A stretch of 64,000 nt of DNA from a phage. Positions 6,776-62,503 of this stretch are shown here, piece by piece (the stretch's first letter is position 1; each line of letters starts with the position of its first letter). The position numbers were made by a program, and so were the translations under genes. Below the pieces are notes generated by a model, which had not been told where the DNA came from, searched no databases, and saw nothing but the letters and a program-made list of their open reading frames with translations. The DNA is taken from the NCBI GenBank assembly GCA_027337125.1, contig GCA_027337125.1_3057.1. One strand, written 5' to 3'.

Positions 6776-6830
6776 TTTACAAGAGATTATGCTTTAATTT
6801 ATTAGAGTATAATCTCTATGGAGGAAAAAC

Positions 6831-7019
6831 ATGGAATATTCAACTGGACAGCATTTATTAACTTTTCCTGAAATAAAACGATATATTCTGAGAAATAATT
6901 TTTCTAATGAAGAGCATATAGTTACTGAATCTATGCTTAAGAATGCATTTAAATCAGAATATACAAAAATAATGTCCAACAGAAATGAAGCTTGGACTGT
7001 TACTGATTATTATGACTAA
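6831..7019 (+). CDS. hypothetical protein (62 aa)
   Basis: ORF track only. Confidence 0.4.
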   Translation: MEYSTGQHLLTFPEIKRYILRNNFSNEEHIVTESMLKNAFKSEYTKIMSNRNEAWTVTDYYD

Positions 7020-12880: not shown

Positions 12881-12893
12881 TAGAATAAATCTA

Positions 12894-12914
12894 GGGACCT
12901 CCAGGTCCCTTTTT
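12894..12914 (+). terminator. intrinsic terminator (GGGACCU-cc-AGGUCCC plus T-run) after gene 43
   Basis: 7 bp perfect stem followed by TTTTT. Confidence 0.7.
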
Positions 12915-12997: not shown

Positions 12998-13027
12998 GTT
13001 TACATCCCTGTTCTTCTATGGTACTAT
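12998..13027 (+). promoter_or_regulatory. early sigma70-type promoter (GTTTACA -35, TACTAT -10), cassette copy 1
   Basis: T4 early promoter consensus; 18 bp spacing; A/T-rich upstream element. Confidence 0.6.
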
Positions 13028-13052: not shown

Positions 13053-13301
13053 TTGGAGAATGAAATGAAAATTGTTATGGGATGCTTAGCAGTTTGTTTA
13101 GTTGCATTAGCAGCAGTTCCATTTGTTAGTGTTGAAAATGATACCCAACCTGTGATTGAATCTAGCACTGTTATTCACACTAATGGTAAAATATCAGTTA
13201 AAATTGATGATAATCTTCATGTGAATACAAATGGATCTTTAGGTGTGCAAATAGGTAATACCTGCATAAGCACTATTGGAGTAATTACTACTTGCATTTG
13301 A
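13053..13301 (+). CDS. predicted secreted or membrane-anchored small protein (82 aa)
   Basis: Hydrophobic N-terminal signal-like segment CLAVCLVALAAVPFV; downstream of an early promoter. Confidence 0.5.
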   Translation: MENEMKIVMGCLAVCLVALAAVPFVSVENDTQPVIESSTVIHTNGKISVKIDDNLHVNTNGSLGVQIGNTCISTIGVITTCI

Positions 13302-13311
13302 GGAAATTATT

Positions 13312-14104: not shown

Positions 14105-14845
14105 ATGATTAATGATTCTTTGACAGTTGAAGAAATCCGTCTTCATTTGGGAATTGCATTAAAGGAAAAAGATTTCGTAATTGATAAAACTGGTGTTAAA
14201 ACTATTGAAATTATTGGCGCATCATTTGTAGCAGATGAACCGTTTATTTTTGGCGCTCTTAATGATGAATACATTCAGCGTGAACTTGAATGGTACAAGT
14301 CTCAAAGTCTGTTTGTTAAAGATATTCCAGGCGAAACGCCAAAGATTTGGCAACAGGTAGCATCTTCTAAAGGTGAAATTAACTCGAATTATGGTTGGGC
14401 TATCTGGTCAGAAGATAACTATGCCCAGTATGATATGTGTTTAGCTGAACTTGGTCAAAATCCTGATTCTCGCCGCGGTATCATGATTTATACTCGTCCA
14501 TCCATGCAGTTTGACTACAACAAAGATGGTATGTCAGATTTCATGTGTACGAATACAGTACAGTACCTGATTCGTGATAAGAAAGTCAATGCAGTAGTAA
14601 GCATGCGTTCAAATGACGTGGTCTTTGGATTCCGTAATGATTATGCATGGCAAAAATACGTACTAGATAAATTAGTATCTGATTTGAATGCAGGTGATTC
14701 AACTCGTCAGTATAAAGCAGGTTCCATTATATGGAATGTTGGAAGCCTTCATGTGTATTCTCGTCATTTTTATTTGGTTGACCATTGGTGGAAAACTGGC
14801 GAAACTCATATTGCGAAAAAAGATTATAACGGTGAGTGGAAATGA
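14105..14845 (+). CDS. 42: gp42, dCMP hydroxymethylase
   Basis: 246 aa; conserved position and length relative to T4 gp42. Confidence 0.85.
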   Translation: MINDSLTVEEIRLHLGIALKEKDFVIDKTGVKTIEIIGASFVADEPFIFGALNDEYIQRELEWYKSQSLFVKDIPGETPKIWQQVASSKGEINSNYGWAIWSEDNYAQYDMCLAELGQNPDSRRGIMIYTRPSMQFDYNKDGMSDFMCTNTVQYLIRDKKVNAVVSMRSNDVVFGFRNDYAWQKYVLDKLVSDLNAGDSTRQYKAGSIIWNVGSLHVYSRHFYLVDHWWKTGETHIAKKDYNGEWK

Positions 14846-17295: not shown

Positions 17296-18723
17296 GTGGT
17301 AGAAATTATTCTTTCTCATCTCATATTTGATCAAGCTTATTTTTCAAAAGTTTGGCCATATATGGATTCAGAATATTTTGAAAGTGGTCCAGCTAAAAAT
17401 ACATTCAAATTAATTAAATCTCATGTTAATGAGTACCATAGCGTTCCATCTATTAATGCGTTAAATGTTGCATTAGAAAATAGTTCATTTACTGAAACAG
17501 AATATTCTGGTGTAAAAACACTTATTTCGAAACTAGCCGATTCTCCAGAAGACCACAGCTGGTTAGTAAAAGAAACAGAAAAATATGTTCAGCAAAGGGC
17601 GATGTTTAATGCTACGTCTAAAATAATTGAAATTCAAACTAATGCTGAGCTTCCTCCGGAAAAACGAAATAAGAAAATGCCGGATGTTGGTGCTATTCCT
17701 GACATCATGCGCCAAGCATTATCAATTTCATTTGATAGTTACGTTGGCCATGATTGGATGGATGACTACGAAGCACGTTGGCTATCTTATATGAATAAAG
17801 CTCGTAAGGTTCCATTTAAACTCAAAATTCTAAATAAAATTACTAAAGGCGGAGCTGAGACTGGAACACTGAACGTTTTAATGGCTGGTGTTAACGTTGG
17901 TAAGTCATTAGGTCTATGTTCATTGGCAGCAGATTATTTACAACTCGGTCATAATGTTCTTTACATTTCAATGGAAATGGCAGAAGAAGTCTGTGCTAAA
18001 CGTATTGACGCTAATATGCTCGATGTTTCTCTTGATGACATTGATGATGGGCATATTTCTTATGCTGAGTATAAAGGAAAAATGGAAAAATGGCGTGAGA
18101 AATCTACTCTCGGCCGTTTAATCGTTAAACAGTATCCTACTGGCGGAGCAGACGCTAATACATTTAGATCGCTTTTAAACGAATTAAAGCTCAAGAAGAA
18201 TTTTGTTCCAACAATCATTATTGTTGACTATCTAGGTATTTGTAAATCTTGCCGCATCAGAGTTTACTCAGAAAATAGTTACACAACTGTTAAAGCTATC
18301 GCAGAGGAATTGCGTGCTCTGGCTGTTGAAACAGAAACTGTTCTTTGGACTGCAGCGCAGGTTGGTAAACAAGCTTGGGATTCTTCCGATGTTAACATGA
18401 GCGATATTGCAGAATCCGCCGGTCTTCCAGCAACAGCCGATTTTATGCTTGCGGTCATTGAAACCGAGGAGTTAGCAGCTGCTGAACAACAACTCATTAA
18501 GCAAATCAAATCACGATATGGTGATAAGAATAAATGGAATAAGTTTTTGATGGGTGTTCAAAAAGGAAATCAGAAATGGGTAGAAATTGAACAAGATTCT
18601 ACTCCAACTGAAGTGAACGAAGTAGCAGGTTCACAGCAGATTCAGGCTGAACAGAACCGCTATCAAAGAAACGAATCTACTCGAGCTCAGTTAGATGCTT
18701 TGGCGAATGAATTAAAATTTTAG
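17296..18723 (+). CDS. 41: gp41, replicative DnaB-like helicase
   Basis: 475 aa as in T4; Walker A GVNVGKS; GTG start. Confidence 0.95.
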   Translation: MVEIILSHLIFDQAYFSKVWPYMDSEYFESGPAKNTFKLIKSHVNEYHSVPSINALNVALENSSFTETEYSGVKTLISKLADSPEDHSWLVKETEKYVQQRAMFNATSKIIEIQTNAELPPEKRNKKMPDVGAIPDIMRQALSISFDSYVGHDWMDDYEARWLSYMNKARKVPFKLKILNKITKGGAETGTLNVLMAGVNVGKSLGLCSLAADYLQLGHNVLYISMEMAEEVCAKRIDANMLDVSLDDIDDGHISYAEYKGKMEKWREKSTLGRLIVKQYPTGGADANTFRSLLNELKLKKNFVPTIIIVDYLGICKSCRIRVYSENSYTTVKAIAEELRALAVETETVLWTAAQVGKQAWDSSDVNMSDIAESAGLPATADFMLAVIETEELAAAEQQLIKQIKSRYGDKNKWNKFLMGVQKGNQKWVEIEQDSTPTEVNEVAGSQQIQAEQNRYQRNESTRAQLDALANELKF

Positions 18724-18760
18724 TTTACAAGCTGACAAGACTATGGTATAGTAGTCTTGT
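18724..18760 (+). promoter_or_regulatory. early promoter (GTTTAC ... TATAGT) with its -10 inside a 9 bp perfect inverted repeat (ACAAGACTA / TAGTCTTGT)
   Basis: Read from sequence; 18 bp spacing; repeat arms at 18735-18743 and 18752-18760. Confidence 0.55.
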
Positions 18761-18781
18761 TGGTTAAATGAGGAGATCGTT

Positions 18782-18964
18782 ATGGAATTGGTAAAGGTAG
18801 TTTTTATGGGGTGGTTTAAGAATGAAAGCGTGTTTACTAAAGAAATCACAATGATGAAAGATGACGTTCAATGGGCTACTACTCAATATGCTGAAGTTAA
18901 TAAAGCATTAGTTAAAGCTTTCATTGATGACAAGAAAGTGTGTGAAGTGGATTGCAGAGGATAA
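18782..18964 (+). CDS. dmd: Dmd, inhibitor of RnlA/LsoA toxins
   Basis: 60 aa; sequence MELVKVVFMGWFKNES... matches recalled T4 Dmd almost exactly. Confidence 0.9.
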   Translation: MELVKVVFMGWFKNESVFTKEITMMKDDVQWATTQYAEVNKALVKAFIDDKKVCEVDCRG

Positions 18965-19208
18965 TATGCACATTGTTTTATTTAAACCTACTCCGTATAA
19001 TGTCAAGAAAAATACTCAATTCAAAGCACTTGTTGCAGATACGTGGGAATTGGTGTTAGATATTCCAGCAGAAGAAAGTCCTCCATTTGGTCGAGTGGAA
19101 TTTATTAAGTTTGCTGTGCGCCCTACGAAGCGACAGATTCGCCAATGCAAAAGATACTTTCGTAAAATCGTCAAGTTAGAGAAACAGTTATTGATGCTAG
19201 TAAAATAG
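18924..19208 (+). CDS. hypothetical small early protein (61.4-like position; possibly starts at ATG about 18966)
   Basis: ORF track; basic C-terminus; lies between dmd and sp. Confidence 0.5.
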   Translation: MMTRKCVKWIAEDNMHIVLFKPTPYNVKKNTQFKALVADTWELVLDIPAEESPPFGRVEFIKFAVRPTKRQIRQCKRYFRKIVKLEKQLLMLVK

Positions 19209-19210
19209 TA

Positions 19211-19252
19211 GTTTACAAGCTGATAGAGTTGTGTTATAGTAATTCTATCAGC
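19211..19252 (+). promoter_or_regulatory. early promoter (GTTTAC ... TATAGT) with its -10 inside a 9 bp perfect inverted repeat (GCTGATAGA / TCTATCAGC)
   Basis: Read from sequence; same -35/-10 as the 18724 promoter but different repeat arms. Confidence 0.55.
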
Positions 19253-19271
19253 TAATCGTGGAGAAAAGAAA

Positions 19272-19526
19272 ATGATGCTAGTTAATAGAGAATATCAGTT
19301 TAAATCAGAAGAAGATTTGGAAAAATTCGCGAGTGGTTGTGAACTGAATAGACGCACAGCTAAAGTCATAGGATTAAAACCCTTTACAGTTCTAGATTGT
19401 GAAGTTTCTAAATTCCGCAGAGGGTGTTCTATTAGCGGTCATGCTCTGGTTGATGGGAACACATTTTTCTTTGTTTTTAGCGTCAGAGAACTTTTATTGA
19501 TTAACGAACTTGAGGAAATAAAATAG
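19272..19526 (+). CDS. hypothetical small early protein (84 aa)
   Basis: ORF track; downstream of an early promoter. Confidence 0.5.
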   Translation: MMLVNREYQFKSEEDLEKFASGCELNRRTAKVIGLKPFTVLDCEVSKFRRGCSISGHALVDGNTFFFVFSVRELLLINELEEIK

Positions 19527-21330: not shown

Positions 21331-21360
21331 GTTTACTTTCTCAGCTTGTTATGGTATTAT
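21331..21360 (+). promoter_or_regulatory. early promoter (GTTTAC -35, TATTAT -10)
   Basis: T4 early promoter consensus, 18 bp spacing; precedes the 21386 ORF. Confidence 0.55.
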
Positions 21361-21385
21361 AAAATAAACTGCTGAGGATAATATA

Positions 21386-23632: not shown

Positions 23633-23637
23633 ATTCA

Positions 23638-23665
23638 GGGACTCCTTCGGGAGTCCTTTTTTCAT
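23638..23665 (+). terminator. intrinsic terminator (GGGACUCC-uucg-GGAGUCC plus T-run) after soc
   Basis: 8 bp stem, UUCG loop, TTTTTT tail. Confidence 0.7.
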
Positions 23666-25780: not shown

Positions 25781-25810
25781 GTTTACTTTCCTTTCTAACG
25801 ATGATATGAT
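25781..25810 (+). promoter_or_regulatory. early promoter (GTTTAC -35, TATGAT -10)
   Basis: Consensus -35, 18 bp spacing; precedes modB. Confidence 0.5.
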
Positions 25811-25836
25811 AGCTTCTGAAGTATACGGAGGCTATC

Positions 25837-26460
25837 ATGATTATTAATCTTGCAGATGTTGAACAGTTATCTATAAAAGCTGAAAGCGTTGATTTTCAAT
25901 ATGATATGTATAAAAAGGTCTGTGAAAAATTTACTGACTTTGAACAGTCAATTCTTTGGCAATGTATGGAAGCCAAAAAGAATGAAGCTCTTCATCGGCA
26001 GTTGAATAAAATCATTAAAAAGCATTTAACTAAATCACCTTATCAGCTATATCGTGGTATATCAAAATCGACAAAAGAACTCATTAAAGATTTACAAGTC
26101 GGAGAAGTGTTTTCAACGAACAGAGTAGATTCATTTACTACTAGTTTGCACACAGCGTGTTCTTTTTCTTATGCTGAATATTTTACTGAAACAATACTTC
26201 GCTTAAAAACTGATAAAGCTTTTAATTACTCTGACCATATCAGCGATATTATACTTTCTTCTCCTAATACTGAGTTTAAGTATACATATGAAGATACTGA
26301 TGGATTAGATTCAGAACGTACTGATAACTTAATGATGATTGTGCGTGAACAAGAATGGATGATTCCAATTGGAAAGTATAAAATAACTTCTATTTCAAAA
26401 GAAAAATTACATGATTCATTTGGAACATTTAAAGTGTATGATATTGAGGTAGTTGAATGA
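25837..26460 (+). CDS. modB: ModB, ADP-ribosyltransferase
   Basis: 207 aa; R-S-EXE ART motifs (LYRG, STN, EQEWMIP); order modB-modA-srd as in T4. Confidence 0.75.
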   Translation: MIINLADVEQLSIKAESVDFQYDMYKKVCEKFTDFEQSILWQCMEAKKNEALHRQLNKIIKKHLTKSPYQLYRGISKSTKELIKDLQVGEVFSTNRVDSFTTSLHTACSFSYAEYFTETILRLKTDKAFNYSDHISDIILSSPNTEFKYTYEDTDGLDSERTDNLMMIVREQEWMIPIGKYKITSISKEKLHDSFGTFKVYDIEVVE

Positions 26461-30742: not shown

Positions 30743-30772
30743 GTTTACTTCCTCGGTTAGTTGTGGTATTAT
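30743..30772 (+). promoter_or_regulatory. early promoter (GTTTAC -35, TATTAT -10)
   Basis: Consensus, 18 bp spacing; lies inside track ORF 30761, implying a downstream true start. Confidence 0.5.
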
Positions 30773-30799
30773 AACACCATAGTTACTGAGGATAATAAA

Positions 30800-31847: not shown

Positions 31848-31883
31848 GTTTACAAACTCTTGGGACCAGAGTATAATGGTCCC
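31848..31883 (+). promoter_or_regulatory. early promoter with its -10 (TATAAT) in the loop of a 7 bp inverted repeat (GGGACCA / TGGTCCC)
   Basis: Read from sequence; GTTTAC at 31848-31853, 18 bp spacing. Confidence 0.55.
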
Positions 31884-31921
31884 GCGGAGTATAAAATCTT
31901 TTTAACAAGTGAGAGATAACT

Positions 31922-32413
31922 ATGATTATTAATATTGGTGAAATTGCTCGTGTATCTGATAAATCCCGTTCTAAAGCAGCAGGAAAATTGGTCGAAATTG
32001 TAAGCATTCAGCTTAAACATGGTGTTAAAGATGAAGATTCTGAAGTAAAAGTGCGTATCATTCCTAAAGATGGAAAGTCTAAACCTCAGTTTGGCTATGT
32101 TCGTGCGAAATTTCTTGAATCTGCGTTTTTGAAAGCTGTTCCTGCTAAAGGAATTGAAACGATTGATACTTCGCATGTAGGTGTAGACTTTAAGTGGAAA
32201 CTCGGTCAGGCTATTAAGTTCGTTGCTCCTTGTGAATTCGAATTTACCGAAGGTGAGGAAGGTGTTGCTCACCGTACCCGCGCTATGTGTGCATACATTA
32301 CCGATCAATGGGTAGAAGATGGCGTTAAGTTGTACAACGCAGTATTTTTAGGAACATACAAAGTCATTCCCGAAAGTTGGATTAAACACTATAGCAAAGC
32401 CCGCTATGCATAA
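31922..32413 (+). CDS. motB: MotB-like protein (163 aa)
   Basis: Size and position between dexA and gene 39 as T4 motB; assignment by synteny only. Confidence 0.45.
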   Translation: MIINIGEIARVSDKSRSKAAGKLVEIVSIQLKHGVKDEDSEVKVRIIPKDGKSKPQFGYVRAKFLESAFLKAVPAKGIETIDTSHVGVDFKWKLGQAIKFVAPCEFEFTEGEEGVAHRTRAMCAYITDQWVEDGVKLYNAVFLGTYKVIPESWIKHYSKARYA

Positions 32414-32511
32414 AATTTAAAATTTTTTCATAAAACTATATACATCAGTAGTTGATTATGGTACTATATCAATATCAACTACTGATACAGAAAAACAACT
32501 TGGAGAATAAA

Positions 32512-34316: not shown

Positions 34317-36134
34317 ATGATTAAGAATGAAATTAAAATTCTGAGCGATATTGAACATATCAAAAAGCGTAGCGGCATGTACATTGGTTCTTCTGCTAAT
34401 GAAATGCATGAGCGCTTTCTGTTTGGTAAATGGGAAAGTGTTCAGTATGTACCTGGTCTTGTTAAGCTTATTGATGAAATTATCGATAACTCAGTAGATG
34501 AAGGTATTCGTACTAAGTTTAAATTCGCGAATAAAATTAATGTTACTATTAAAAACAATCAAGTAACAGTTGAAGATAACGGTCGTGGTATTCCACAAGC
34601 GATGGTTAAAACACCTACTGGTGAAGAAATTCCTGGTCCTGTTGCTGCCTGGACTATTCCAAAAGCAGGTGGTAACTTCGGTGATGATAAAGAACGCGTC
34701 ACTGGCGGTATGAACGGTGTTGGTTCTAGTTTAACTAACATTTTTTCTGTGATGTTTGTCGGTGAAACTGGCGACGGTCAAAATAATATTGTAGTTCGTT
34801 GTTCAAATGGCATGGAAAATAAATCATGGGAAACTATTCCTGGAAAATGGAAGGGAACACGTGTTACTTTCATTCCTGATTTTATGTCATTTGAAACTAA
34901 TGAGCTATCTCAAGTTTATCTTGACATTACATTAGATCGCCTCCAGACACTTGCAGTAGTTTATCCTGATATTCAATTTACCTTTAATGGTAAAAAGGTT
35001 CAGGGTAATTTTAAGAAATATGCACGCCAATATGATGAGCATGCTATCGTTCAAGAACAGGAAAATTGCTCTATTGCGGTTGGTCGTTCACCGGATGGTT
35101 TTCGTCAATTAACATACGTCAATAACATTCATACTAAGAATGGTGGTCATCACATTGACTGTGTTATGGATGATATTTGTGAAGACCTTATTCCACAAAT
35201 CAAACGTAAGTTCAAAATTGATGTAACTAAAGCACGTGTTAAAGAATGTTTGACTATCGTTATGTTTGTCCGTGATATGAAAAACATGCGATTTGATTCT
35301 CAAACTAAAGAGCGTTTGACTTCTCCATTTGGTGAAATTCGTAGTCATATTCAGCTTGATGCTAAAAAGATTTCACGTGCTATTTTAAATAATGAAGCAA
35401 TTTTAATGCCAATTATTGAAGCTGCTTTGGCTCGTAAATTGGCGGCAGAAAAAGCAGCAGAAACTAAAGCAGCTAAAAAGGCTTCTAAAGCTAAGGTTCA
35501 TAAACATATTAAAGCGAATCTTTGTGGTAAAGATGCTGACACTACTCTTTTCTTGACTGAGGGTGATTCGGCTATTGGGTATCTTATTGATGTTCGTGAT
35601 AAAGAACTTCATGGTGGTTATCCATTACGTGGTAAAGTTCTCAACAGCTGGGGTATGTCATATGCTGATATGCTTAAAAATAAAGAACTGTTTGATATTT
35701 GCGCAATCACTGGATTAGTTCTTGGTGAAAAAGCCGAAAACTTGAATTATCATAATATTGCTATTATGACTGACGCTGACCACGATGGTCTAGGAAGCAT
35801 TTATCCTTCTCTGCTCGGATTTTTTAGTAATTGGCCAGAACTGTTTGAACAAGGAAGAATTCGCTTTGTCAAAACTCCTGTAATCATCGCTCAGGTCGGT
35901 AAAAAACAAGAATGGTTTTATACAGTCGCTGAATATGAGAGTGCCAAAGATGCTCTACCTAAACATAGCATCCGTTATATTAAAGGACTTGGCTCTTTGG
36001 AAAAATCTGAATATCGTGAGATGATTCAAAACCCAGTATATGATGTTGTTAAACTTCCTGAGAATTGGAAAGAGCTTTTTGAAATGCTCATGGGAGATAA
36101 TGCTGACCTTCGTAAAGAATGGATGAGCCAGTAG
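34317..36134 (+). CDS. 39: gp39, topoisomerase II large subunit (GyrB-like ATPase plus TOPRIM), unsplit form
   Basis: 605 aa from the ATG at 34317; GHKL and TOPRIM motifs; continuous through the region where T4 is split into 39 and 60. Confidence 0.9.
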   Translation: MIKNEIKILSDIEHIKKRSGMYIGSSANEMHERFLFGKWESVQYVPGLVKLIDEIIDNSVDEGIRTKFKFANKINVTIKNNQVTVEDNGRGIPQAMVKTPTGEEIPGPVAAWTIPKAGGNFGDDKERVTGGMNGVGSSLTNIFSVMFVGETGDGQNNIVVRCSNGMENKSWETIPGKWKGTRVTFIPDFMSFETNELSQVYLDITLDRLQTLAVVYPDIQFTFNGKKVQGNFKKYARQYDEHAIVQEQENCSIAVGRSPDGFRQLTYVNNIHTKNGGHHIDCVMDDICEDLIPQIKRKFKIDVTKARVKECLTIVMFVRDMKNMRFDSQTKERLTSPFGEIRSHIQLDAKKISRAILNNEAILMPIIEAALARKLAAEKAAETKAAKKASKAKVHKHIKANLCGKDADTTLFLTEGDSAIGYLIDVRDKELHGGYPLRGKVLNSWGMSYADMLKNKELFDICAITGLVLGEKAENLNYHNIAIMTDADHDGLGSIYPSLLGFFSNWPELFEQGRIRFVKTPVIIAQVGKKQEWFYTVAEYESAKDALPKHSIRYIKGLGSLEKSEYREMIQNPVYDVVKLPENWKELFEMLMGDNADLRKEWMSQ

Positions 36135-36164
36135 TTTAATTATACCACAAGGATGTGGTATAAT
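36134..36164 (+). promoter_or_regulatory. promoter-like element with 10 bp inverted repeat (TTATACCACA / TGTGGTATAA) overlapping a TATAAT -10
   Basis: Read from sequence right after the gp39 stop. Confidence 0.45.
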
Positions 36165-36189
36165 TAATTGGGCAAATGAGGATATTGAA

Positions 36190-40621: not shown

Positions 40622-40651
40622 GTTTACAAACCACAAGGACTGTGGTACTAT
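40622..40651 (+). promoter_or_regulatory. early promoter (GTTTACA, TACTAT), cassette copy 3
   Basis: Shares upstream A/T tract, -35, -10 and leader with copies at 12998, 44425, 61720. Confidence 0.55.
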
Positions 40652-41127: not shown

Positions 41128-41157
41128 GTTTACAAGACTGTTCCTCTGTGGTATTAT
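41128..41157 (+). promoter_or_regulatory. early promoter (GTTTACAAG, TATTAT)
   Basis: Consensus, about 18 bp spacing. Confidence 0.5.
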
Positions 41158-41182
41158 TCTATCAACTATGGAGGAACAGAAA

Positions 41183-44368: not shown

Positions 44369-44373
44369 TTTTA

Positions 44374-44400
44374 GGGAGAGCCGAGGCTCTCCCTTTTTTA
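44374..44400 (+). terminator. intrinsic terminator (GGGAGAGCC-ga-GGCUCUCCC plus T-run)
   Basis: 9 bp perfect stem followed by TTTTTT. Confidence 0.75.
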
Positions 44401-61647: not shown

Positions 61648-61670
61648 TAGATTATATTACTAATTAATTG

Positions 61671-61696
61671 GGGACCCTAGAGGTCCCCTTTTTTAT
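61671..61696 (+). terminator. intrinsic terminator (GGGGACC-cuag-AGGUCCCC plus T-run) after gene 32
   Basis: Stem-loop followed by TTTTTT. Confidence 0.7.
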
Positions 61697-62068: not shown

Positions 62069-62449
62069 ATGTATATTGGCAAAAAGTATGAACTTGTTCC
62101 AAGACTTATTGATACATTTATTAATTATAGTCCACGTTCTAATTCATCAATAGTTAAAATTATTCAAGATAATGGCGGATGGTTTGAAGTCAAAGAAGTT
62201 TTCTTTGCTAATGGATTTAAAGCAGTAAAACACATTGAATGCGCTAATGGAAAGCATTTTTACCTCAAAGATAGACTTTTAGAAATTTGCGAAGACGAAT
62301 TTCATTGTTTCCGCGAGTATAAAGAACCGACTTCTGAAGAAGATGAAGTCGAAGACAAGATTTCTGGCGTAACAAAAATTCACTGCGTTGTAGACGAAAA
62401 CAATGTAGATGAAATTATTGAACTTTTGCGAAAAACTTTCAAAAAGTAG
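62069..62449 (+). CDS. hypothetical protein (126 aa)
   Basis: ORF track only. Confidence 0.5.
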   Translation: MYIGKKYELVPRLIDTFINYSPRSNSSIVKIIQDNGGWFEVKEVFFANGFKAVKHIECANGKHFYLKDRLLEICEDEFHCFREYKEPTSEEDEVEDKISGVTKIHCVVDENNVDEIIELLRKTFKK

Positions 62450-62485
62450 TTTACAGTAGGGTAGTAGTGTGATACTATTACCCTA
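62449..62485 (+). promoter_or_regulatory. early promoter with its -10 (TACTAT) inside a 7 bp inverted repeat (TAGGGTA / TACCCTA)
   Basis: Read from sequence; GTTTAC at 62449-62454, 18 bp spacing. Confidence 0.5.
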
Positions 62486-62503
62486 TCAACTAAGGAGAAT
62501 AAA

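Follow-up and report, generated by a model that had tools for sequence, protein, structure and literature searches.

Hairpins straddling the -10 element of early promoters in a T4-like phage are maintained on the sense strand

Early promoters of a Tequatrovirus (T4-like) phage often carry a hairpin-forming inverted repeat that straddles their -10 hexamer, and the pairing is maintained on the sense strand, most simply as RNA and less simply as the top DNA strand. We analyzed these elements in a 64,000-nucleotide stretch of contig GCA_027337125.1_3057.1 (GenBank assembly GCA_027337125.1), hereafter the window, of which the 2 kb around the finding are 97-98% identical to many Tequatrovirus phages. 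The element is of a published type, the promoter-early stem-loop (PeSL) of T4-type phages (Arbiol et al. 2010, PMC2839356; Comeau et al. 2014, PMC4122927), here correctly observed in a T4 relative. What is new is modest: a preferred pairing register, selection on the sense strand, the lack of a U-tract, the scarcity of hairpins at promoters preceded by a terminator, and a split between hairpins that mask a ribosome-binding site and hairpins that do not. As for function, we infer, at about even probability, that the hairpin would act as a 3′ boundary for the upstream message, laid over a promoter at which transcription restarts.

The association of hairpins with early promoters is well beyond chance. 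Promoters, and likewise their start sites, are consensus predictions, and a promoter was scored as hairpin-bearing when the minimum free energy reached -12 kcal/mol or lower within 50 nt after the -35 element. Nine of the 18 clear early promoters in the window, all on the + strand, pass this threshold, against 5.0% of 2558 background windows (binomial, 6e-8); in shuffles that left the -10 intact, 0.2 of the 18 passed on average and never more than 2. When the + strand hairpins of the 64 kb were ranked by strength, 8 of the top 42 fell on early promoters, and the element is repeated through the window, on 9-10 of the 18. A comparison set was built from 45 related loci around gene 41 taken from viral contigs (L001-L045), which together with the window gave 189 strict promoters, 162 of them unique. 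Among these 162, 39% fold at -12 kcal/mol or better, compared with 6.6% of the background; the set includes orthologues, so that p-values overstate the independence of its members.

Five sites had been singled out in a preliminary description of the window as perfect inverted repeats that place an early-promoter -10 in the loop or the 3′ arm. All five repeats are present, and each straddles the -10 of a match to the T4-type early consensus GTTTAC-N18-TAnnnT (GTTTAA at 36134), mostly with a TG extension. They rank among the best sigma-70-like matches in our promoter scan, three of the five being TG-extended. Folded as sense RNA they reach -15.7 to -21 kcal/mol, with z scores of -3.6 to -5.2 and none of 200 shuffles equaling them. 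The -10 lies in the loop at four sites, its last base entering the 3′ arm at two of these, and within the 3′ arm at 36134. Aligning promoters on GTTTAC separated three geometric classes, and the five sites belong to the one we call class A or are offset variants of it; in class A the helix joins the spacer to the final base of the -10 and the first transcribed bases, and TG-n-TATA is left in the loop.

The first is the predicted early promoter of dmd (18723-18752), with its -35 GTTTAC at 18723-18728 and a TG-extended -10, TATAGT, at 18747-18752; like all promoters and hairpins in this paragraph, it is on the + strand. Its perfect 9-bp repeat (18735-18743/18752-18760, loop of 8) is extended by G·U pairs to 15 pairs at 18730-18765 around the loop GGUAUA, and the 3′ arm ends close to the predicted start site. 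The sense strand folds at -21 kcal/mol (z -5.2) and the antisense strand at -10.1. The second promoter (-35 at 19211-19216, -10 TATAGT at 19235-19240, whole element 19211-19253), driving a goF-like open reading frame (19272-19526), has a perfect 10-bp repeat at 19218-19227/19244-19253 (loop 16) within the hairpin 19218-19231/19240-19253 (z -4.6). At 31848-31890, upstream of a motB-like gene (31922-32413), the -10 TATAAT (31872-31877) is accompanied by a perfect 7-bp core, GGGACCA/TGGTCCC (31862-31868/31877-31883, loop 8), inside the hairpin 31856-31868/31877-31890 (-19.7 kcal/mol, z -3.9). The element at 36134-36167 is a perfect 14-bp repeat (36136-36149/36154-36167) with a loop of 4, its -10 TATAAT at 36159-36164 lying in the 3′ arm and its 5′ arm overlapping the -35 (-15.7 kcal/mol, z -4.5). 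The fifth, at 62449-62486 with -10 TACTAT (62473-62478), has a perfect 7-bp core, TAGGGTA/TACCCTA (62457-62463/62479-62485, loop 15), in the hairpin 62456-62469/62473-62486, which folds at -17.8 kcal/mol (z -3.6) as sense and at -11.9 as antisense.

The arm lengths given in the preliminary description hold for three repeats; 19218-19253 has 10 bp where 9 had been counted, and 36136-36167 has 14 instead of 10. Its view that all five share one geometry is right for 18723, 19211 and 31848, which lie in one exact register, and fails for 62449, where the sum of the paired positions is shifted by 5, and for 36134, whose hairpin is centered in the spacer. The count of at least five was borne out and was too low. 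The window has one more such hairpin, the sixth, at 32444-32486 on the + strand, with arms CAUCAGUAGUUGA and UCAACUACUGAUG, -20.2 kcal/mol and z -4.6; its loop holds TGGTACTAT (-10 at 32462-32467) and its -35 is degenerate (TATACA). Hairpins of a second kind, described below, occur at 21331, 25781, 30743 and 41128.

That structure rather than arm sequence is under selection, as had been proposed, is supported by two lines of evidence: register-specific complementarity and covariation. For the former, each of the 162 unique promoters was scored, in all symmetric registers, for its longest stretch of uninterrupted pairing. Enrichment is confined to a single register, that of 18723, 19211 and 31848, whose center falls between bases one and two of the -10; here stretches of 7 pairs or more occur in 22.8% of promoters, compared with 6% when the 3′ arm is borrowed from another promoter and about 0-5% in the non-favored registers. 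For the latter, the promoter after gene 41 was compared in nine phages, T4 included, where a 15-pair helix is kept with quite different arms. Pairing in this alignment extends to 91.9% of cells, compared with 74.7% for shuffles and 34-57% for slid controls; the nine phages were picked for having the hairpin, which makes these percentages partly circular, a reservation that does not extend to the compensatory changes, seen on both sides of the helix in 11 of the 15 pairs. Within Tequatrovirus, all five observed arm substitutions retain pairing, though this is a small sample, and at a G·U site any transition is compatible with pairing.

These data also bear on the idea that the palindromy is a by-product of a partly self-complementary consensus (ATGG-TAtAgT, CTATCAAC) in an element that spreads by duplication. 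The cross-promoter control is indeed raised in the favored register (6%, against about 1% elsewhere), column composition alone predicts 37-56% pairing, and arms are often alike within one genome. However, pairing within promoters is about four times the cross-promoter control, and neither the compensatory changes, nor the preference for G·U over A·C, nor the depletion of hairpins beside terminators described below would follow from such an origin, which we therefore consider highly improbable. As a separate observation, CTATCAAC(T) is common right after the -10 in many early promoters of the window and of L001-L045 (+1 to about +10); the class A 3′ arm often uses it, and the 5′ arm then gives GATAG.

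The strand on which pairing is kept was assessed in register-51 helices, with G·T and A·C mismatches allowed alike. Internal G·U pairs outnumber A·C by 31 to 7, where base composition predicts 44% G·U (p 3e-6), and the sense fold is stronger than the antisense fold in 58 of 70 strong cases, compared with 214 of 347 in the background (p 5e-4). Among the five sites, the antisense fold is weaker at four; at 36134 it is as stable as the sense fold because all pairs are Watson-Crick. Since a cruciform or a symmetric protein-binding site needs both strands, the G·U bias points to sense RNA, or less simply to the top DNA strand. The suggestion that these are structure-sensitive promoters acting at the DNA level is accordingly disfavored.

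A broader DNA-level reading holds that extrusion of the palindrome as a cruciform or hairpin tunes promoter opening, or that it is a target of recombination or endonuclease VII for the shuffling of cassettes, with RNA folding as an incidental consequence. It can draw on the perfect 14-bp Watson-Crick palindrome at 36134, on the coincidence of indel ends with these promoters, and on the PeSL mini-circles and crossovers inside the stem-loop reported earlier (PMC2839356). Yet a cruciform or a dimeric protein site would require pairing or symmetry on both strands, and the wobble pairs favor the sense strand by 31 to 7, with a weaker antisense fold at four of the five sites. The arm sequences vary freely, which argues against a sequence-specific protein site, and recombination requires homology only, with no need of a hairpin. 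We regard this explanation as quite unlikely.

Geometry restricts the RNA on which the hairpin can form. In the alignment on GTTTAC, the class A 3′ arm ends at positions 34-43 and the predicted start lies near 37, about 7 nt after the -10. Because the 5′ arm is upstream of the predicted start, only transcripts that read through from the upstream gene can fold; transcripts initiated at the promoter lack the 5′ arm, their predicted starts lying within or beyond the 3′ arm. This agrees with the earlier suggestion of a structure for read-through transcripts fused to a restart promoter. Across all early promoters the median distance between the upstream stop codon and the -35 is 2 nt, so that the promoter is the only place where intercistronic structure can be written, and the leaders of the five sites measure 19-38 nt and include a Shine-Dalgarno sequence. 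A candidate explanation in which the hairpin is embedded merely because the upstream gene abuts the -35 was rejected, as such abutment is seen at nearly all early promoters, whether or not they have a hairpin (p 0.3 for a gap of 12 nt or less).

The junction between gene 41 and dmd illustrates this arrangement. Gene 41 ends at 18723 with a TAG (18721-18723) that overlaps the G of GTTTAC in the dmd promoter, and the dmd reading frame, identified as Dmd by Pfam, runs from 18782 to 18964. The promoter site is annotated as "predicted early promoter" in phage fPS-65, and T4 has the same hairpin; in the GenBank T4 record AF158101, neither promoters nor terminators are annotated here. Among relatives, about a dozen phages have a class A hairpin at this junction, and about fifteen have a terminator followed by the promoter, the terminator in these T4-like phages being GC-rich and U-tailed.

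The hairpins themselves are not canonical intrinsic terminators, one of the roles first suggested for them: the 8 nt after 37 class A stems have a mean of 1.7 T and 44% A, without a U-tract, the stems are 36% GC, and a terminator scan of the window did not call any of the five. With no U-tract and a silent scan, efficient intrinsic termination is unlikely. They resemble Rho-independent terminators in being stable hairpins right after the stop codon of a gene, and differ from them in lacking the U-tract and in their low GC content. Canonical terminators in the window, GC-rich with tetraloops and T-runs, lie at 12893-12910, 23637-23658, 44373-44394 and 61670-61688, and these sit upstream of promoters without embedded hairpins; the scan did call those at 12893-12910 and 23637-23658. 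Across the comparison set, where a canonical terminator precedes the promoter by no more than 130 nt, an embedded hairpin is present in 2 of 24 cases, compared with 60 of 133 where none does (p 5e-4), counts that include non-independent orthologues and that took a wider spacer and upstream range to give a signal, strict definitions having supplied only 5 terminator cases (p 0.16). The scarcity of hairpins behind terminators and the presence of a terminator at the same junction in relatives fit a hairpin that serves the upstream message at its 3′ end.

The first PeSL proposal, that the stem-loops are efficient terminators insulating each early cassette from upstream transcription, deserves mention here. 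A stem-loop of RB49 (PeSL211/210) cut lacZ expression like rrnB T1 (PMC2839356), and the hairpins of the window replace canonical terminators by position. Against this stand the A-rich tails, the AT-rich stems and the silent scan already given, together with the separate canonical terminators of the window, which imply that the phage uses that design where termination is wanted. We give this proposal a small probability for the elements examined here.

On the reading we favor, a very strong sigma-70 early promoter fills the gap of about 58 nt between two co-directional genes, and the hairpin uses the only positions that the promoter leaves free: the spacer as 5′ arm, the constrained TG-n-TATA as loop, and the last base of the -10 with the first transcribed bases as 3′ arm. 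Transcripts of the promoter itself would begin inside or beyond the 3′ arm and so have an open leader of 19-25 nt, while read-through transcripts would hold both arms and form a hairpin of 7-15 bp right after the upstream stop codon. Structure, selection, strand and position are established here; as to the effect on transcripts, such a hairpin may set a 3′ boundary for the message upstream, either by attenuating weakly or by blocking 3′-to-5′ exonucleases after cleavage downstream, or both, taking the position of the canonical terminator found before other early promoters.

Several points weigh against this reading. The A-rich tails without a U-tract, and the failure of the terminator scan to call the five hairpins, leave little room for efficient intrinsic termination, and the sole PeSL stem-loop tested is the GC-rich element of RB49, unlike the AT-rich stems (36% GC) of the window. 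The anticorrelation with terminators fits any function on read-through RNA equally, not specifically a 3′ boundary, and the orthologues in the comparison set temper its p-values, as they do those of the hairpin counts. GGAG sites of RegB downstream show no link to hairpins, being present at 21 of 37 promoters with a hairpin and 69 of 125 without; an exonuclease stop specifically after RegB cleavage was rejected on these figures. The searchable literature yielded no usable map of T4 3′ ends or start sites. A search of the whole window (1-64000) against Rfam at gathering thresholds gave no matches.

A rival reading is a protective role, in which a structured intercistronic gap on delayed-early RNA blocks Rho loading and cuts by RNase E/G and thereby helps read-through, the opposite of a boundary. 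It would account for a hairpin that forms on read-through RNA only, for the missing U-tract and, equally well, for the depletion behind upstream terminators, and untranslated delayed-early RNA of T4 is sensitive to Rho and nucleases (Hinton review, PMC2988021). What argues against it is that other phages put a true terminator at the same junction, which suggests that a 3′ end is wanted there, not passage, and that about half of the early promoters with a co-directional upstream gene and no terminator are hairpin-free. Protection seems unlikely to us.

In class B the hairpin includes the next gene's ribosome-binding site: in B1 the -10 and about 8 nt pair with the Shine-Dalgarno and AUG, and in B2 a CCUC-type run directly 3′ of the -35 pairs with the downstream Shine-Dalgarno across a loop of 20-30 nt that contains the -10. 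The effect was computed as the accessibility, that is, the unpaired probability, of the ribosome-binding region on read-through versus primary RNA. The B1 hairpin belongs to the predicted early promoter of modA (-35 at 25781; hairpin 25805-25839, + strand), where TATGAT and 8 nt pair with GGAGG...AUG. Because the -10 region pairs in this way, masking of the ribosome-binding site is confined to read-through RNA, with an accessibility of 0.21 versus 0.61 (ratio 0.34). The 14-pair helix is kept, with 3 compensatory pairs, in 11 diverse phage loci: the window (25781-25850), L002 18575, L006 16232, L008 17993, L014 17241, L032 16924, L033 17483, L036 18062, L037 18738, L038 19775 and L043 17835. 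The modA product is assigned as an RNA polymerase ADP-ribosylase by PHROGs, whereas Pfam gave no family for the modA and modB products. Judging from the pairing, modA read-through RNA would be poorly translated, and ModA, described in a review as highly toxic, would be made only from the short-lived transcripts of its own promoter.

Three B2 hairpins occur in the window, all on the + strand. At promoter 41128 (41138-41179), CUGUUCCUC right after the -35 pairs with the Shine-Dalgarno GAGGAACAG (accessibility ratio 0.56), and at promoter 21331 (21338-21378), UUCUCAGC pairs with GCUGAGGA, also a Shine-Dalgarno (ratio 0.63). The hairpin of promoter 30743 (30750-30792; UCCUCGG... with the Shine-Dalgarno ...CUGAGGA) folds at -18.4 kcal/mol, and its computed accessibility is nearly unchanged (0.30 versus 0.32, ratio 0.95). 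A CCUC-like pyrimidine run after the -35 also pairs in L034 (16294) and L035 (16699), and runs of this type follow GTTTAC in many early promoters. Masking as a function of the five hairpins first described was considered and rejected, the ratio of read-through to primary RNA being 0.96-1.13 at 18723, 19211, 36134 and 62449; at 31848 the region is moderately less open on read-through RNA (0.64).

Promoters within hairpins are familiar from T4 late genes. At e, soc, 49 and I-TevI, a late promoter is enclosed by a hairpin, and on long transcripts this hairpin masks the ribosome-binding site (PMC3014915, PMC2988022), and the known cases are all late genes (PMC2988022). The window resembles them in having the promoter within hairpin-coding DNA, such that RNA started upstream folds and RNA started at the promoter lacks the 5′ arm, and the class B sites 25805-25839, 41138-41179 and 21338-21378 likewise sequester the Shine-Dalgarno, the AUG or both. 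Unlike them, the five sites do not sequester the ribosome-binding site beyond the ratios above, and the embedded promoters of the window are early (GTTTAC...TAnnnT) and not late (TATAAATA).

Taken together, the two classes could be seen as a genome-wide RNA "origin tag", by which read-through and promoter-proximal copies of a cistron differ in structure at about half of T4-like early promoters; we put this forward tentatively and consider it doubtful. If true, the hairpins may not be terminators at all, and the copies could be handled differently, in stability or processing for class A and in translation for class B (modA, for example), and the logic of the late genes e, soc, 49 and I-TevI would extend to the immediate-early versus delayed-early program. 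T4 early expression is a textbook system, and the results bear on what separates immediate-early from delayed-early RNA and on the role of the PeSL stem-loop. Since the element type is already published, known biology is refined and no new field opened. For annotation and engineering, it matters that such promoters do not insulate neutrally and that the ends of cassette swaps tend to fall on them.

The comparison with PeSLs, which had been recommended at the outset, proved apt as to promoter type, stem-loop position, module borders and indel ends. A PeSL module consists of a strong early promoter between an upstream stop codon and a downstream Shine-Dalgarno and start codon, with a stem-loop (PMC2839356, PMC4122927). 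In RB49 and phi1 the usual position of the stem-loop is between -35 and -10 or across the -10, and the authors marked G-T pairs (PMC2839356), and the PeSLs of the PST/T4 pair follow the consensus TTTACW-N17-TAYWAT with variable stems (PMC4122927). All five window sites are sigma-70-type early promoters fitting this consensus, their stem-loops are stable and lie at the described positions, including overlap with the -10, and the modules are bordered by the same upstream stop and downstream Shine-Dalgarno and start codon; indels relative to close relatives also end at the element. PeSLs are described as repeated many times per genome, with a preference for hyperplastic regions; in the 64 kb of the window, 9-10 of the 18 early promoters have hairpins. 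Two differences stand out. Stems of RB49 and phi1 are rich in G- and C-tracts, whereas those of the window are AT-rich and without a U-run, and the legend of the PST figure in PMC4122927 places the stem-loops just upstream of the promoter, whereas ours straddle the -10 in one preferred register.

As a by-product, related phages exchange gene cassettes at the repeated promoter-hairpin modules. A cassette at 19190-19515, comprising promoter 19211 and the 84-amino-acid goF-like reading frame and flanked by promoters 19211 and 19526, is present in SYGD1, SH-2 and BP32 and absent from T4, PST and L001-L004; relatives without it have a single promoter, equal to that at 19526 of the window, directly after gene 61.4. 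The 1.4-kb segment 21293-22724, which begins just upstream of promoter 21331, is missing in L003, L004, L021 and SYGD1 and holds a reading frame of 186 amino acids (phrog_8706, function unassigned), and the segment 23332-23631 ends upstream of promoter 23673. By a rough estimate, about 5 of about 14 breakpoints fall within 50 nt upstream of a -35, against about 0.25 expected. Further indels relative to close relatives comprise 13073-13311 and insertions in relatives at 14828/14840 and 19878/19879. A short hairpin in which the extended -10 (TGTGGTA) forms the 3′ arm, ACCACA-AGGA(C)-TGTGGT, occurs at 40630-40646 and 36140-36163 and also in L019 and L020; its recurrence in unrelated promoter spacers suggests copying of promoter modules between sites.

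The window keeps the T4 gene order on the early-transcription strand, with 46/47, 45, 44, 62, regA, 43, 42, uvsX, 40 and 41 followed by dmd, sp, 61, soc, modA/B, dda, 39, rIIA/B and 52; the tail-fiber genes lie beyond 52 on the opposite strand. Among its other promoters, those at 12998, 40622, 44425 and 61720 are nearly identical (TCACAAAAC(G/T)GTTTAC...TGGTACTATACAACTATC), and three of the four follow the terminators 12893-12910, 44373-44394 and 61670-61688. None has a hairpin straddling the -10; 40622 has just a short 6-bp stem in the spacer. Finally, the arms of a hairpin at 6778-6823 (-18.4 kcal/mol) contain a MotA-box-like TATGCTTTA (5′ arm) and, 11 nt away, TATAAT (3′ arm); the hairpin lies directly upstream of GGAGG and an ATG at 6831 and looks like a putative middle promoter in a stem-loop, similar to the "PmSL" of phage nt-1.

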